DNA of 64,000 bases from Candidatus Heimdallarchaeum aukensis (GCA_021513695.1 CP084166.1:2368001-2432000); one strand, 5' to 3'; positions 8,139-55,305 are shown, counted from the first letter of the stretch. Program-made: numbers and translations. The notes: generated by a model not told the origin, from the sequence alone.

Positions 8139-8214
8139 TATACAACATAATAATACATTTTTTTCTTTTTTCAAAACATTTTTTTAGATATTTGTGCTTA
8201 CTAATTTGAACATA

Positions 8215-8949
8215 ATGTCCCTTGAACCAAAACGAGCTTATAAAATAGTTTTAATTGGAGACCCAGAAGTAGGAAAAACTTCCATAAGAAGAAGATATAT
8301 GGGAAAAACGTTTAAAGGAGAATATTTGAAAACAATAGGTGCTGACTTTGCAGCACAAAAAGTAGAAATTGAAGATGAGGTCGTTTTATTAACAATATGG
8401 GATCTAGCTGGGCAAACTATCTTTCATGGAATGCGTTCTTCCTTTTACCAAGGATGTAAGTCTGCGTTAGTTGTTTTTGATGTAACAAATGTTGAAAGTT
8501 TGAACAATGTAGAAAAATGGACAGAAGAAGCTGTAACCTATGCAAAAAGTTCATTACAAGAGATTTATTTAATAGGCAATAAAATAGATTTGAAGAAAGA
8601 GAGAGTAGTTACAAAAGAACAAATAGACAAAAAAGTAAAACAATTGGAATCTTTAGTTAACTTTCCTATTAGAGTTTATGAAACATCTGCTCTTACAGGA
8701 GAAAATATCCAATCTTTATTTATGGATCTAAGTAGACGATTAATTATTAGTGATAACGTTAAATTTGAAGAAGAAATAGAAGCTAAACGTGCTCATGATG
8801 TTAAGAAAGAAAAAAGAAAAGAACCAGGTAAAGATGTTGATTATAAATCTAAAGATGACTTGAAAGAGATAATAAACCATATCGAGCTTCATGTTGAGAA
8901 AATAAATGACTTTATCAAATTATTGAAAAAACGATTAGATAAACTGTAA
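8215..8949 (+). CDS. Rab/Ras-like small GTPase with about 70-aa charged/coiled-coil C-terminal extension
   Basis: G1 GDPEVGKT, switch I YLKTIGADF, G3 WDLAGQ, G4 GNKIDL, G5 ETSAL. The ORF track starts at GTG 8194; ATG 8215 (MSLEPKRAYKIVLIG) fits the family N-terminus. No C-terminal Cys (no CAAX). Confidence 0.85.
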   Translation: MSLEPKRAYKIVLIGDPEVGKTSIRRRYMGKTFKGEYLKTIGADFAAQKVEIEDEVVLLTIWDLAGQTIFHGMRSSFYQGCKSALVVFDVTNVESLNNVEKWTEEAVTYAKSSLQEIYLIGNKIDLKKERVVTKEQIDKKVKQLESLVNFPIRVYETSALTGENIQSLFMDLSRRLIISDNVKFEEEIEAKRAHDVKKEKRKEPGKDVDYKSKDDLKEIINHIELHVEKINDFIKLLKKRLDKL

Positions 8950-18874: not shown

Positions 18875-21037
18875 ATGCAGTATAAGAAAAAAACTTTCTA
18901 TTGTTTGTTATTTATTGGGGTTATATTTACAACTTTGTTCTTGTATCTATACCCATTCAATTCTAAAATAACTTTTGTAAGTGATTATAAAGATTATACA
19001 TATTCATCTAATATTGAGATAGTAAAACAAGATTACACAGAGGATTTTGATAGAGAAATAAGTTTATCAGATTTTCTTACTTATTCAATTGAACCTTATG
19101 TTCTTGATTTTGAAAAAGATCAATCATTCGAATTTTTTGTTATCTCAAATCGTTATAATGAAACTGAAGGAAATAAATTATTTTTACTAAAAGATGCTAG
19201 TATTATGCCTAACTGGCCAATTCAACTAGATGTGGATATTGAGGATGTAGTAGGTCAAGAGACTTATGATAACGAACAAATTGTAATAGTAAGAGCTAAA
19301 GATAAGAATAGTATCAATCAAACCTTATTTTATGGCATAAATAAAAATGGAGACGTGATCAGTTCATTTACAAAAGTAGTAGGAGAAACATTTAGTGGAG
19401 ATACTTTATTTGGTGACATTGATGAGGACGGTCTAAATGAATTTGTGATACATAGTAACTATCAGGTCTTTGTGTATGAAGATGATTTTACATTAAAAGA
19501 GAATTGGCCAAAAGAAACAAATGAGACAATCTTTTCAGAAATTGTTGTGGAAGATGTAAATTTAGATGGAAGAAAGGATATTGTAACCCTAACTGAGCAA
19601 GGACTAATCTTTGTATGGGATTGGAATGGAACATTGTTAAGTCACTTTACTAAAAGGATTGATCTTCTATATTACAAAAATGGGGAAGGATTTAGAGTCA
19701 TGCCCATAGTGACAGACAGTAATAAGGATGGAGTAGTAGAGATTTTCGCTTCATCAACCTTTGGTTATCTCTATTGTCTAGAACTATCTAAAGCAAAAAC
19801 AAGCACTTATTATCAAAAATTACCTAATGCTATTTATAGTTTAAATCAAGCTACTGCTAGCGATATAAACAAGGATGGACTAATTGATATCATACAACCT
19901 TTCTCCGATGGTTTTTATATTTTTAATTTTAATAAAAGCTTGGAAGTTAAGACAAAAGTAGAAGGGTCTTATTCTTTCACGGGAGCTCCTGTACTAGCAG
20001 ATATAAACAAAGATAATACACTGGAACTAATTTTTGTTTCCGACTATCGTTTACTAGTTTTCAATTATACTGGGGTTGAAAATCAAAATTATGAAAGATC
20101 AATCCCCTATGCTTATAGTAATGGAATTTCACCTATTGTATTTGATAGTGATAGTGATAGTGAGATTGAGATAGTCTATTTAAATAATTATGGAAAAATA
20201 AAAATATTCGAAACAAATGATTTTGGATTGCTTCCATGGTTGTTCAAGTATTCTTCTCCTCTACATTCTGTTAATAATGACTATGATAGTGATGGATTGT
20301 TAAATTATGAAGAAGAAATAGTAGGCAGCGACCCTCTAAACTCTGACAGCGATTCTGATACAGTTTATGATGGAGAAGAAGTTAATCAATATGTGATGAA
20401 TCCTATTATTGCTGATTTATCTTTAGATAGTGATGAAGACAATTTAACTAATATTGAAGAAGTAGACATTTATTTAACAAATCCGTTAAATCCAGACAGT
20501 GATTTTGACGGGTTAAAAGATGGAGAGGAAGTACTTATTTATTCAACGAACCCATTATCTATTGATTCAGACGAAGATGGGTTGCCAGATTCTTTTGAAG
20601 TAGAATATACTTTTTTAGATCCAAATGATGCTGATGATGCTCAGTTAGATTATGATGGAGATAATTTGTCAAATTTAGAAGAATACCTTTATGGAACTGA
20701 TCCAAGTAATCCTGATACTGATTCCGATACTCTTTCTGATGGAGATGAAATTTATAGATACTTTACGAATCCTATAGTTCCTGATGCTGATGCTGATTAT
20801 GATGGAGATGGCTTAACCAATGTTGAAGAAGTAGATATTTATCATACTGACCCATCTTCAGCAGATAGCGATGGTGATGGAATAAATGATGGTGAAGAAA
20901 TAGAAAAGGGGTCAGACCCTAATGATCCACAAAGTATACCTAAAACATCAAAAATTCATTTTGATACATTTTTCATGGTAATTTCACTTTTTTCTCTAAT
21001 CTTTGTAATTACTTTAGTAAAAAGGGCAAGGAATTAA
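18875..21037 (+). CDS. Integrin-alpha-like surface protein: FG-GAP/VCBS beta-propeller, TSP type-3-like Ca-binding repeats and C-terminal TM anchor
   Basis: N-terminal signal/anchor helix. At least 6 D-x-[ND]-x-D-G-x-x-[DE] loops about 46-55 aa apart (GDIDEDGLNEF, EDVNLDGRKDI, TDSNKDGVVEI, SDINKDGLIDI, ADINKDNTLEL, FDSDSDSEIEI). A C-terminal array of NP..DSD.DG..DGEE repeats. Ends LIFVITLVKRARN. Confidence 0.75.
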   Translation: MQYKKKTFYCLLFIGVIFTTLFLYLYPFNSKITFVSDYKDYTYSSNIEIVKQDYTEDFDREISLSDFLTYSIEPYVLDFEKDQSFEFFVISNRYNETEGNKLFLLKDASIMPNWPIQLDVDIEDVVGQETYDNEQIVIVRAKDKNSINQTLFYGINKNGDVISSFTKVVGETFSGDTLFGDIDEDGLNEFVIHSNYQVFVYEDDFTLKENWPKETNETIFSEIVVEDVNLDGRKDIVTLTEQGLIFVWDWNGTLLSHFTKRIDLLYYKNGEGFRVMPIVTDSNKDGVVEIFASSTFGYLYCLELSKAKTSTYYQKLPNAIYSLNQATASDINKDGLIDIIQPFSDGFYIFNFNKSLEVKTKVEGSYSFTGAPVLADINKDNTLELIFVSDYRLLVFNYTGVENQNYERSIPYAYSNGISPIVFDSDSDSEIEIVYLNNYGKIKIFETNDFGLLPWLFKYSSPLHSVNNDYDSDGLLNYEEEIVGSDPLNSDSDSDTVYDGEEVNQYVMNPIIADLSLDSDEDNLTNIEEVDIYLTNPLNPDSDFDGLKDGEEVLIYSTNPLSIDSDEDGLPDSFEVEYTFLDPNDADDAQLDYDGDNLSNLEEYLYGTDPSNPDTDSDTLSDGDEIYRYFTNPIVPDADADYDGDGLTNVEEVDIYHTDPSSADSDGDGINDGEEIEKGSDPNDPQSIPKTSKIHFDTFFMVISLFSLIFVITLVKRARN
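20279..20935 (+). repeat. Coding tandem array of about 8 thrombospondin-type-3-like acidic repeats
   Basis: Repeats read directly: DYDSDGLLNYEEE, DSDSDTVYDGEEV, DSDEDNLTNIEEV, DSDFDGLKDGEEV, DSDEDGLPDSFEV, DYDGDNLSNLEEY, DTDSDTLSDGDEI, DYDGDGLTNVEEV, DSDGDGINDGEEI. Confidence 0.8.
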
Positions 21038-29229: not shown

Positions 29230-30990
29230 CTATTCTTTCACTCCAGCTTTCAAAGGAGGAAGCTCAGAAAAACGTTCAAATAGCCGCCTATAGTCAATAC
29301 TTGATTGAATTAGTTCAATATGCGTTCCGTGGGCAACAAGTTTTCCTTTTTTCAAAATAATAATCTGATCTGCATTTTTTATAGTAGCTAAACGATGAGT
29401 AATAATGAAAGTTGTTCTCTCTTTTAATACATTGGCAATAGCAATCTGTATCTCTCTTTCTGTTTCAGCGTCAATAGCACTACTCGCATCATCAAAAATT
29501 AAGATTTTTGGATTTCCCAATAAAGCACGAGCAATAGCAATTCTTTGTTTTTGCCCTCCAGAAAGCTTAACTCCTCTTTCTCCAACAATCGTATCATATC
29601 CTTCTTCAAATGACATAATAAAATCATGTGCTTGAGCCAACTTTGCAGCGTGTTCAATTTCTTCTTGACTGGCTTGTGGTTTTCCATAAGCAATATTTTC
29701 TCTTATTGTCTTGCTAAAAAGAAAAATATCTTGTTCTATAGCTCCTATATTTTTCCTCAGACTAGACAAACTCATTTCTCTTAGGTCAATACCATCAATG
29801 GTTATTCTACCCTCTGTAGGGTCATAAAAACGCATCATTAGCTTAATCAATGTAGATTTTCCTGATCCAGGAGCACCAATAATGGCTATAGTAGAACCTG
29901 CAGGAACATGAAGGTTAATGCCATCAAGAGTTTTCTCGTTGGTATTGGTTCCATTATAAGAAAAAGACACGTTTTCAAAAACAATTTCACCTTTCGGCTC
30001 TAACCATTCTATAGGTTTTTTGGCTTCTGGAACATATTCTTGTCTAGTTTTCATATTGTATATCCTTTTTGCAGCAGCCATCCCAATTTGAAATTGAGTA
30101 CTAGCCCAACCTAATTGCCATGTGGGAGAGTTCAAAGTCATTGCTAACATTACAAAAGAAACTAGTTGAGAAAGTGAAATGCTCCCCTTTGTTACTTCAA
30201 AGCTACCCCATAGAAAACTAAAAGCTATAACTAGAATGGTAATCAGAATAGGATAATACTTTGTGCTTAATATCCCTCTTTGTGTGTTAATCTCTCGAAG
30301 CTTATCAGCTTGTGTGTCAAAATAATTAATCTCTTCATCCTCTTTCACAAAACTTCTGATTATTCTAATACCTGTTACACTCTCTTGTAAGAATTCATTA
30401 AGCCTACTATTCTGTTCAACTTGAGCTTTAGAGATTGGCTGTAATTTCTTGTTAAAATCATAAATTGTTATAATATAAAATGGTAATGCAAAAACAAGAA
30501 TTAATGTGAGCTTTGGGCTAATATAAATCATAAGAGAAACAGAAAATAGTATTGTAAAAAAACCTTCAAGTAAAAACTTTAATCCTGGAGAAATAAAGAT
30601 ATTCATCTGACGGGTATCATAAGTGGCACGAGCCATGATATCTCCAATACGGACACGATCATGAAACTCATGGCTCTTTTTTAGCATATCGTCATAAAAT
30701 TCTTCTGTGACATTTTTTGTAACTTTGTGTGCTATAACCTCATTTGTATAACTCTGGGTAAAATCAGCTAAAGTGCGAATAATTCCCGCTAAAGCAATTA
30801 GTAGAGCAGTTTTTATAATTTCTAGAAACGAACTATTTTCTTTTGCTAACTCATCAAAAATATCTCCAATTAACATAGGTGTAAAAGATACAGTAGCAAT
30901 AAAGAAAATAAGGAAAAAAATCATAATAGTTACTAGTTTCTTTTCTCTCAATATATGCTTAAATAACCAACTTTTATACCCCATAGACAA
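29230..30990 (-). CDS. ABC exporter, fused TMD-NBD half-transporter (heterodimer partner)
   Basis: Walker A GAPGSGKST, signature LSGGQKQR, Walker B ILIFDDAS. The stop abuts the start of the downstream paralogue with zero spacer. Confidence 0.85.
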   Translation of the reverse strand: MSMGYKSWLFKHILREKKLVTIMIFFLIFFIATVSFTPMLIGDIFDELAKENSSFLEIIKTALLIALAGIIRTLADFTQSYTNEVIAHKVTKNVTEEFYDDMLKKSHEFHDRVRIGDIMARATYDTRQMNIFISPGLKFLLEGFFTILFSVSLMIYISPKLTLILVFALPFYIITIYDFNKKLQPISKAQVEQNSRLNEFLQESVTGIRIIRSFVKEDEEINYFDTQADKLREINTQRGILSTKYYPILITILVIAFSFLWGSFEVTKGSISLSQLVSFVMLAMTLNSPTWQLGWASTQFQIGMAAAKRIYNMKTRQEYVPEAKKPIEWLEPKGEIVFENVSFSYNGTNTNEKTLDGINLHVPAGSTIAIIGAPGSGKSTLIKLMMRFYDPTEGRITIDGIDLREMSLSSLRKNIGAIEQDIFLFSKTIRENIAYGKPQASQEEIEHAAKLAQAHDFIMSFEEGYDTIVGERGVKLSGGQKQRIAIARALLGNPKILIFDDASSAIDAETEREIQIAIANVLKERTTFIITHRLATIKNADQIIILKKGKLVAHGTHIELIQSSIDYRRLFERFSELPPLKAGVKE

Positions 30991-32305: not shown

Positions 32306-34180
32306 TTAAATTAAATTAAACAATTTTTTTCTTTTACGGATAATAATAACCATAGTCATTAAAAACATAATAGCCGTTAAAGAGTAATTCAGTGAGTAAT
32401 CTAAAGGAAATGTGTTTAATATGTCAGTATTTGTATCAGTTGTATTTCCACTTGGTTCCTCTCCTTCTCCCAAAATTCTTAGTTCGTGAATAGCTAGTGC
32501 AGGCATGCTTTCGTTGTTATATGCTACATCGAAATAGTTGGGCCCTTCTAATGATTGATATTAAGCTAAATTTGTGAAGTATATACTTTCTCCCAAATTA
32601 GTTTGAAAATCTCCTCCGTTAATATCTTCTGATCTTAAAGGCTTTGAAAACTCTATTTGTCTCATGTTTTGGTTATAAATAAATGTGGCTCATCCATCAA
32701 TTGTTCCTCCGACATCAATGTCACTAATAGGTTCTCCTTTAGTTTGATCAAAAACCATATCTTCGTATGATTCTGGGGTCATTACAGCAAGATCTGTTCC
32801 TCTATCAACTTCCAACATATTTGCTGTTTGACCAAACATGAATATATTCGCATCTCCTTCATCATATTTCTCCTCATAGATCTCAAAATAGATATATGTT
32901 GTGTATCCATCAGTAACAAAACGAATTTCTCCATCAAAGCGATTATCCTCTTGGATATAGTTATTTTCCCAATCAACAAAATATATAGTAACATGGTATG
33001 TTACTGCTCTATCCCAAAAATCTTCATTTGCATAACCGTCATAAGTAATATCCACCGAAGAGAGATAAACACACTCATAGACTTGATCTGAAAGCAACCA
33101 ATTAACCTTTCCTCCTATTTCTGGAGTGTGGATAATATCTCCATTATCAGTACCAAGTGAGAGACGAATAAATTTGAATGTAGAACCATCCGCAATAGAC
33201 CGATTAGGTCCTCCAGGAGCAGTTGTGTCAATCCAAGCTACAATGAAAACACCAATTGAGTTGCCATAACCTAGATCAAAATCAAAGCCATTGATATCAT
33301 TAGACTGTAATTCTTTTTGAAATTCAAAATATGAACCGTCGTTAGTCATTTTCGTGAATGCATTAACATTATTTTGCCCTCCCCTATCTCCATCGTTAAA
33401 AGGTTCTACGAAAAAAGAATCAAAGCCATGGTCTTCGACTCTATTATCTGAAGCGTTCATCAACTTAATTTTTGTACAATATTCTTGTACGCCAATCTTG
33501 CTCTCGGAAAGATCTGTCTAGGGGGGAGATCTAAACACTCATTAAGCCAGAGGAGAAGGTTGAGCACTCCTCCACCGTGGAAACTGGATGAATAAATCCT
33601 CTCACACGGGAAAGTTAAGTTGTATTTAACTTTTCTTTGATTTCTTTCTTTATGCGCATGTTTTTTTATCCTGACACACCGTGCCAGCTTAGAGAGTAAG
33701 TATTTTTCTTAACATTTATCTTTTTTTTTCACTCTCTACATTACTAATGTCTTTTCACTATTTAAACACCAATTTTTTAATTTGACAAAAATGTACAAAA
33801 AAGTAATCCATGAATATTGCATCAATTGTTTCTCCTTGCTCTTCTCTTCCAAAGAACATTATCTCTGTTGCATAAACTTGTCCTTCTAGATTAGGAATAT
33901 AAACAAAACCATAAAGAAATGAGTTGTCATATGCAAAATTTACTTTTGCAGAAACAATTATGGGTGGATCGTGGGGTTCTATTGGAACCAAATTTATCTC
34001 CACAAGGGAACTATTATCCCATTCTTGAAAGATTCCATCTAATACAATGGTGTCATTATAAGGAGCAATTATTGAGGGATTATCTGTTGTTTCCCCAGCA
34101 TAAAGTAAATTGATTTTTATAATTAATCCAATTAGAAGGCAAGCGAAAAAAATTATTGAAAAAATTTTTCTTTGCTTCAT
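32306..34180 (-). pseudogene. Disrupted secreted surface-protein gene: three same-frame fragments, one insert and two in-frame stops
   Basis: ORFs 33758..34180 (signal peptide MKQRKIFSIIFFACLLIGLII), 32690..33463 (no signal peptide) and 32306..32506 (C-terminal TM followed by RKRKK) all have start coordinates of 2 mod 3. The stretch between the last two translates as protein-like sequence interrupted only by TGA (32690-32692) and TAA (32561-32563). Confidence 0.7.
33464..33796. other. GC-rich structured insert (candidate ncRNA, miniature mobile element or intron-like element)
   Basis: The core 33491-33610 has 60/120 G+C by hand count, versus 20/100 in 33701-33800. Multiple short perfect stems are present. 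The hairpin at 33612-33632 is followed by a T-rich run on the + strand. TGTACAA occurs at both borders. Confidence 0.4.
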
Positions 34181-54567: not shown

Positions 54568-55305
54568 TCACTTGAATTTTTTTACGAGTTGTTTTAGAAT
54601 TGTTTGTATTGTTTCTATTTTTTCTTCTATTTTCTCCACTCTTTTAACAAGCTTATTGAATTCGTCAGCTGATACTTCTACTTCTCCAGAGACTGATTCC
54701 ATCATCGATTCTTTAATATCTATAATTCCAGGAGCAAGTTCTTTTTTCTTTGTTACTTTAACGTTATTTGCTTCGAGAAGTGTGTAAGCCAAGAAATCAA
54801 ACGTTTCTTGGATATTTTGTCCTGTTAATGCCGATGTTTCACTATAGTAGAAGTTTATTCCCGTTTCAGTCATTAGTCTCTGACAAAATTCTATAGCCAT
54901 TTTCTGTGATACTCTCCTATTTTCTGGAGGAAGATCGATCTTATTAGCTATTACAAAGTAAACTAGAATTCCAGAATTTGAACCTTCAATACTCTCTTCT
55001 AGCCATGTTCGTAGATTAGTCATTGTTTGTTGATCTTGGATATCAAATACCAACAAAGCAGCTATAGCTCCTTTATAAAAAGTTGACCTAACAGCTGAAT
55101 AGCTATCTTGTCCTGCAAGATCCCATATCTGAAAAGTGATGTCATTGTCTTCTACTTTTACTTTTTTTGAAGCAAAGTCAGCCCCAATTGTTTTAAGATA
55201 GTCTCCTGTAAATCCTTTTCCCATATATCTCTCTCTAATAGAGGTCTTTCCTACTGCTCCATCTCCAGCCAATACAATTTTAAAATTCCATTTTTTTCCT
55301 GTCAA
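54568..55305 (-). CDS. Rab/Ras-like small GTPase with coiled-coil C-terminal extension (paralogue of 8215..8949)
   Basis: TTG start preceded by GGTGA. G1 GDGAVGKT, switch I YLKTIGADF, G3 WDLAGQ, G4 ANKIDL, G5 ETSAL. No C-terminal Cys. Confidence 0.85.
   Translation of the reverse strand: MTGKKWNFKIVLAGDGAVGKTSIRERYMGKGFTGDYLKTIGADFASKKVKVEDNDITFQIWDLAGQDSYSAVRSTFYKGAIAALLVFDIQDQQTMTNLRTWLEESIEGSNSGILVYFVIANKIDLPPENRRVSQKMAIEFCQRLMTETGINFYYSETSALTGQNIQETFDFLAYTLLEANNVKVTKKKELAPGIIDIKESMMESVSGEVEVSADEFNKLVKRVEKIEEKIETIQTILKQLVKKFK

Follow-up and report, generated by a model that had tools for sequence, protein, structure and literature searches.

A 64,000-nucleotide stretch of the Candidatus Heimdallarchaeum aukensis genome (GCA_021513695.1, CP084166.1:2368001-2432000; hereafter the window, with positions counted from its first letter) carries on its minus strand a gene for a putative surface protein that is divided by a short insert. 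In the genome annotation, the two parts of the gene stand as independent hypothetical proteins, K9W45_10740 (140 aa, UJG40304.1) and K9W45_10735 (256 aa, UJG40303.1), and the same arrangement of two open reading frames (ORFs) is found in two Logan assemblies. A first-pass annotation of the window had assigned both parts to one gene and had offered three options for the DNA between them: a noncoding RNA, a miniature mobile element, or an intron-like element. Comparison with related genomes points to the mobile element, which may in addition carry a noncoding RNA. The insert is probably a non-autonomous, protein-less transposable element of the group of insertion sequences (ISs) associated with TnpB (IS200/IS605 or IS607), and it resembles the palindrome-associated transposable elements (PATEs).

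When the joined fragments were used as a query, a 502-aa protein (P0001) was found with 93% identity across the whole query. Both P0001 and the orthologue in the syntenic region of Ca. H. endolithica PR6 (L047, from CP084167.1) read without interruption through the junction (...ETIDAIFMNASDNRVEDHG...), which confirms the assignment of the fragments to one gene. The site was compared in three related genomes that lack the insert: L001, which is the DNA encoding P0001; L002, a syntenic 61.9-kb ENA contig; and L047. With the element boundary written as a slash, the empty site of L001 is GCAATATTCATG/AACGCTTC, while the window has TTCATG/GATTAC...AAGTTGATG/AACGC instead. L001 and L002 share the uninterrupted form TT(C/T)ATG/AACGCTTC, and the PR6 protein continues through the site as ...TIDSIFMNTSDNRVEDHG... 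(SIFMNTSDN). The empty site encodes ...DAIF-MNASDN... from ...TTCATG/AACGC..., and the insertion point falls within the codons F-M-N of the host gene.

The DNA alignment with L001 defines the extra DNA as 351 nt (window 33808..33458, minus strand), slightly more than the ~330 nt estimated before. The two host fragments share one reading frame, whereas excision of 312 nt plus one repeat copy had been expected to put them out of frame, and the insert contributes 10 in-frame stops. The N-terminal fragment had been read as ending in DAIFMDYFF; in fact the fragments join at DAIF-M/NASDN, and the tail of the 140-aa ORF (DYFFVHFCQIKKLVFK) is encoded by the element. All 16 sequence strings quoted in the first-pass annotation (stems and repeats) were found at their positions, including the two copies of TGTACAA. 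However, these copies lie inside the element, within subterminal inverted repeats, and are not a flanking target-site duplication; the element is actually bounded by TCATG/ and ...TTGATG/. The base composition had also been counted exactly, with 60 G+C of 120 in 33491-33610 and 20 of 100 in 33701-33800. The G+C content of the whole window is 32.2%, and a level of 60/120 is reached at only two places in it, the core of the insert and the interior of an S8 peptidase gene.

A search for further copies with an 18-mer from the core led to the complete Ca. H. endolithica PR6 genome (CP084167.1). There, five unrelated loci (L013, L019, L023, L029, and L035), which have nothing else in common with the window, each contain a copy 350-353 nt long with 96-97% identity to the insert. 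All six copies have the same boundaries: each is preceded by TCATG and is directly followed by A, after which the DNA is unrelated. The element starts with six lineage-variable bases (AAGAGC in PR6 and GATTAC in the window) followed by TTTTTTGTACATTTTTGTCAAA..., and the right end common to all six copies is ...GTACAAnAATATTGTACAAAAATTAAGTTGATG. In the empty sites reconstructed for PR6, two of the five copies interrupt long ORFs and three lie outside ORFs. Empty sites in three related genomes and five further copies with identical boundaries in another species thus bear out the mobile-element option.

The average nucleotide identity between H. aukensis and H. endolithica is only 88% (PMC8813620); therefore, the element, at 96-97% identity, has diverged far less than the genomes. 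Such a difference suggests that the element has been active recently or has passed between the species, and the copies document recent transposon activity in Heimdallarchaeum genomes. A second copy was not found within the window. Exact-pattern scans of IMG/VR and JGI metagenome contigs gave no copy, nor did distant blastn searches of PLSDB plasmids and INPHARED phages, and the supplements of two papers on Heimdallarchaeum mobile elements contain no entries on IS605, TnpB, or MITEs (miniature transposable elements bearing inverted repeats). The 351-nt repeat deserves masking or mobile-element annotation in Heimdallarchaeum genomes.

The product of the host gene is predicted to be a secreted, membrane-anchored protein. 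Relative to L001, two Gln codons have become nonsense codons, CAA to TGA at codon 380 (32690-32692) and CAA to TAA at codon 423 (32561-32563), and the original stop codon has been lost (TAG to TTG). The substitutions are clustered at codons 210-423, and the whole gene has 27 synonymous and 23 non-synonymous codon differences. Because the insert is accompanied by two further nonsense codons and a lost stop, the host gene is, on its sequence, a pseudogene in the Ca. H. aukensis genome. The L002 orthologue (252 aa) is shortened by an internal deletion, so this surface-protein gene decays repeatedly. A HAD-hydrolase gene lies between the surface-protein gene and a radical-SAM gene in PR6 and in the ENA contig, and it is absent from the window. 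These observations refer to L002:10001-10759 and L047:8922-9659.

Since the element has ATG as its last three bases and inserts behind an ATG, the downstream fragment automatically gains an in-frame start codon. UJG40303.1 begins at this element-supplied ATG (33458-33460), which explains its annotation as a separate protein. K9W45_10740 and K9W45_10735 should be annotated as pieces of one dead gene and not as two hypothetical proteins.

The features of the element and its host gene are listed in Table 1. No ORF longer than 38 aa is present in the element, and no Pfam family was matched by its three-frame translations. Terminal inverted repeats are absent, since the termini (AAGAGC or GATTAC at the left, CAACTT at the right) do not match. 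Inverted repeats of ~20 bp, together with short direct repeats of the TTTTTGTACA type, are set in by about 6 nt at the left end and by 16 nt at the right, and the left-end repeats pair with the right-end repeats (alignment columns 4-24 with 323-349). Folded as DNA, the right-end palindrome has z-scores of −1.5 to −2.0. A true target duplication is also absent: only ATG is shared by both sides in all six copies, and the base before it is always C at the left and always G at the right (TCATG versus TGATG).

Table 1. Features of the mobile element and of the host gene that it divides (window coordinates).
Feature	Position	Strand	Remarks
N-terminal fragment of host gene	33809..34180	−	Signal or anchor helix and domain start; annotated as K9W45_10740, extending to 33758
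Target pentanucleotide TCATG (TAM-like, resembling a target-adjacent motif)	33809..33813	−	Host codons F-M; present once in empty sites; beside 6/6 copies
Whole mobile element	33458..33808	−	351 nt; start GATTACTTTTTTGTACA..., end ...GTACAAAAATTAAGTTGATG
Left-end subterminal repeats and palindrome TTTTTTGTACA TTTTTGTCAAA	33781..33802	−	Hairpin with one bulged T
TATA-box-like TTTAAATA	33759..33766	−	Archaeal type, facing into the element; invariant in 6 copies
Long hairpin TAGAGAGTG / CTTACTCTCTA	33690..33738	−	29-nt A-rich loop; −10.1 kcal/mol (−) versus −7.3 (+)
GC-enriched, hairpin-dense core, hairpins C to G	33491..33689	−	50% GC in 33491-33610; candidate structured RNA
Right-end subterminal palindrome GTACAA gaata TTGTAC	33474..33490	−	Also direct repeat GTACAAnAAT
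Right terminus TTGATG (TEM-like, resembling a transposon-encoded motif)	33458..33463	−	One base different from target; identical in 6 copies
First host base after element, A	33457	−	6/6 copies; forms palindrome TCATGA with left flank
C-terminal remainder of host gene	32306..33457	−	Ends in transmembrane anchor, then RKRKK; TGA and TAA nonsense codons

The class of the element was approached through the TnpB elements resident in the genus. The syntenic PR6 region contains a tnpB-only IS (L047, 11285-13127) that encodes a 485-aa PF07282 protein (Cas12f1-like/TnpB). It is bounded by ...GAGCCATG/CTTTACTTTTTGCGTAATTTTGCGAAC ... CTTCGCAAAAAGTAAATCATG/AGTTTC and interrupts an ABC-transporter gene whose orthologue in the window (29230-30990) is intact. 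The flank of this IS is ...GCCATG/ and its end is ...AAATCATG/, and the two ends, CATG included, mirror each other almost perfectly. The elements of L047, L050, and L051, all from PR6, encode PF07282 proteins of 483-486 aa, have the flank NCATG/, and share the right end ...AAAAAGTAAATCATG/. A second TnpB family, 39% identical to the first, occurs in metagenome-assembled genomes of Heimdallarchaeaceae and has the right end ...AATAACTCATG/. TnpB paralogues are abundant in H. aukensis as well as in H. endolithica; two clusters at 90% identity, which are named for these species, comprise 18 and 31 sequences, of which at least 4 are from H. aukensis.

The insert and the three PR6 elements have a common end grammar, NCATG/ at the left and a run of A, TAA, xT, C or G, and ATG/ at the right. 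This shared grammar is the reason why we read the insert as a PATE-like derivative of a TnpB-type IS. The last 55 nt of the insert are weakly similar to the right end of the L051 element (z = 3.6; 11 of 2000 shuffles were as good). Family 1 elements consist of a left end of ~140 nt, the tnpB gene, and 239-254 nt from the stop codon to the right end. The left end and the post-stop region add up to approximately the size of the insert. To judge from these comparisons, the mini element is like the resident tnpB-only elements in the type of its target, in its terminal motif, and in the layout of its ends, and the defined target motif TCATG has the same form as theirs.

Several observations weigh against this assignment. 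The similarity between the left end of the insert and those of the TnpB elements was not significant in a shuffle test, neither the 3' nor the 5' regions of the two sampled TnpB-IS families gave a significant local alignment with the interior, and a full-length parent element was not found among the sampled loci. No tnpA was seen beside any TnpB copy examined. Furthermore, the palindromic target of 6 bp, the base conserved behind the insertion point, the shared ATG, and the mirror-image ends poorly fit an IS605 element moved by a Y1 transposase, and a strict target of 5-6 bp poorly fits IS607. An origin of the insert by internal deletion from one of the sampled TnpB families was rejected, since its alignments to their 3' regions were no better than those of shuffled sequences. 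A TnpB-like ORF was not present among ten mid-sized ORFs of the window, and tblastn of the window with an approximate ISDra2 TnpB sequence gave no match.

The element inserted between TCATG and A of a TCATGA target in the Ca. H. aukensis lineage, splitting the surface-protein gene. In the proposed mechanism, a transposase encoded at another locus would have mobilised it in trans, either a Y1 HUH TnpA or an IS607-type serine TnpA. A defined short motif on the 5' side of the left end, the lack of duplication, and the subterminal palindromes fit IS200/IS605 (Y1), while the identical bases at the target and the right terminus and the direct repeats in the ends fit IS607 (serine). A serine recombinase gene was not seen in the loci examined. 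A dimeric enzyme that acts on double-stranded DNA is suggested by the mirror-image ends and by the conserved A, which completes the palindrome TCATGA, and the transposition chemistry might be neither classical IS605 nor IS607. An rve-type transposase near the L013 copy was considered as a partner and rejected because its ends are unrelated to the element. This gene (L013:5700-6790; IS481/IS3-like, 312 aa) has ACTCACTTATTTCTCTG on both sides and is located ~1.5 kb from the element copy.

As an alternative, a DDE-type cut-and-paste transposase could have moved the insert as a conventional MITE, duplicating a 3-bp target (ATG) inside a preferred TCATGA site. The ATG on both sides of every copy and the ~20-bp inverted repeats pairing the two ends agree with this explanation, a palindromic target is expected for a dimeric enzyme on double-stranded DNA, and some TnpB clades are associated with IS630-type DDE transposases whose ends are symmetrical (PMC10691335). 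However, the inverted repeats are subterminal, 5-6 nt in from the termini, and the termini themselves are unmatched, and cutting a 6-bp palindrome symmetrically would yield a duplication of even length. The C and G before ATG mean that the flanks (TCATG and TGATG) do not form a simple duplication, and the same pattern is present on tnpB-only elements that have no DDE gene. Therefore, we consider a conventional MITE unlikely.

An intron-like element (group I, group II, or archaeal bulge-helix-bulge) would be spliced from the mRNA, and the surface protein would still be made. The insert sits within a coding sequence, on its coding strand, its length of 351 nt is a multiple of 3, and it is rich in hairpins; moreover, the existence of IStrons shows that self-splicing introns can become joined to TnpB elements (10.1101/2023.11.20.567912). 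However, no Rfam intron or ribozyme family was matched above threshold; the best match, Pistol, reached 19 bits (E = 0.49), below its gathering score of 34.5. The junctions do not form a bulge-helix-bulge, which would have two 3-nt bulges around a 4-bp helix. They cofold into a continuous helix with a 1x1 loop, as follows from the mirror-image ends of the element. The PR6 copies vary from 350 to 353 nt with three of the five outside ORFs, and splicing would not rescue a host gene with TGA and TAA codons downstream. An intron is thus very improbable. Equally improbable is a host gene for a structured small RNA standing between two separate genes, with mobility irrelevant: a core of 50% GC in a genome of 32% GC, stable hairpins, a TATA-like box, and T-rich tracts would suit it, but the empty-site comparison contradicts it, both flanks are halves of a single domain within one gene, the same sequence occurs at five unrelated loci with sharp and constant boundaries, and no Rfam family, tRNA, or tmRNA was matched.

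A separate question is whether the PATE-like element itself carries a functional RNA. The 3' two-thirds of the element lie where TnpB elements encode omega RNA. The GC-rich core stops ~30 nt short of the right end, the strand concerned reads into the flank, and TnpB is present in the same genome. The TATA-like box TTTAAATA is a possible promoter for a minus-strand RNA. Downstream of it, the minus strand has no run of four or more T, while the plus strand has runs of T5, T7, and T9, which would stop archaeal transcription. The consensus fold of the six copies is more stable on the minus strand (−76.4 versus −64.8 kcal/mol on the plus strand), and the differences between the window and the PR6 consensus in the predicted structured part are in loops or in pairs kept as G-U on the minus strand. 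Compared with dinucleotide shuffles, the 333-nt segment 33464-33796 has fold z-scores of −1.2 (plus) and −3.2 (minus).

Other results speak against an RNA function. The high local GC had been taken as the signature of structured RNA. The 243-nt core has a z-score of about −2.2 on both strands, and the folding of the insert is only moderately unusual relative to shuffled sequences. The strand preference is mixed among the hairpins: C, F, and B favor the minus strand, D and G favor the plus strand, and E is neutral. The six copies are too alike for covariation analysis and contain no compensatory pairs. The core is not significantly similar to the local TnpB 3' regions of family 1 or family 2. 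The first-pass annotation had found no match of the insert to the RNase P, SRP, C/D-box, or hammerhead consensus, and Rfam likewise gave no family match in the whole window at gathering thresholds; a search of 33300-33950 at E ≤ 10 returned matches at chance level only (Pistol at 19 bits, snoR120, and SNORA7). ARAGORN found no tRNA or tmRNA.

Taking these points together, we give roughly one chance in three to the core being a stand-alone omega (guide) RNA scaffold. In that case, the 3' two-thirds of the element would be transcribed on the minus strand from the internal TATA-like box through the right end into the flank, and the resulting omega-type guide RNA could be used by resident TnpB nucleases to cut empty TCATG-AACGCTTCAGATAATAGAGT sites. 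The whole would be a protein-free homing unit: a guide RNA gene of Heimdallarchaeia (Asgard archaea) that has been mobilised on its own and relies on a borrowed transposase and a borrowed resident TnpB nuclease; we put this forward as a tentative and rather doubtful extension. The scaffold is unrelated in sequence to the sampled TnpB elements, and this would point, if the extension is true, to a further, unsampled TnpB family or to the use of guide RNAs across families. The core provides a concrete candidate guide RNA for Asgard TnpB nucleases.

Two other features of the window were observed. An inverted repeat of 147 nt with 76% complementarity (8229-8375 and 55148-55294) lies in the ORFs 8194-8949 (plus strand) and 54568-55305 (minus strand), which are probably paralogous. 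Asp-rich tandem repeats with a period of ~69-147 nt (20266-20842) are located inside a 720-aa ORF (18875-21037), and they look like the calcium-binding, thrombospondin-type-3-like repeats of a secreted protein.

The explanation preferred here, a PATE-like element of the TnpB-associated group, is an ordinary one. It is a known kind of element, and the findings leave the current understanding of such elements unchanged. With respect to the RNA, omega RNAs are often encoded by PATEs and used in trans (PMC10055086), and stand-alone mobilised omega RNAs have already been described (Altae-Tran et al. 2021, as summarised in PMC10691335). As far as that summary describes them, the insert is likewise a protein-less mobilised unit amid many TnpB loci. 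No sequence similarity or Rfam-level similarity to any known omega RNA was found for it. Its structured part abuts the right end, and read-through would carry the flank as a guide near the TAM-like motif.

Compared with IS607, which encodes a serine TnpA and TnpB (PMC6188088), the insert is alike in having no terminal inverted repeats or target duplication and in having short direct repeats near its ends. The bases of the terminus are the same as those of the target in both (GG in IS607 and (A)TG in the insert), as for exchange at a short identical core. However, IS607 needs only GG (PMC6188088), while the target of the insert is 5-6 nt long and is strictly TCATGA in all six copies.

The closest resemblance is to PATEs, which have no terminal inverted repeats or target duplications, contain palindromes near their termini, and use a targeting oligonucleotide of 4-6 bp (PMC3119063). 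Like the haloarchaeal PATEs derived from IS605/IS1341 (Dyall-Smith et al. 2011, PMC3119063) and the PATE-like elements of Geobacillus (PMC10055086), the insert is too short to encode a transposase. It differs from them in its Asgard archaeal host, its target TCATG(A), and its right end TTGATG; a parent IS sharing its interior has not been found, and its ends are mirror images rather than one hairpin repeated in one orientation. The insert agrees with PATEs in lacking terminal inverted repeats and duplication, in its palindromes near both termini, and in the variable stretch between terminus and palindrome. It also agrees with them in having a fixed oligonucleotide of 4-6 nt, in forming a homogeneous family with >90% identity, and in coexisting with many tnpB-only elements.

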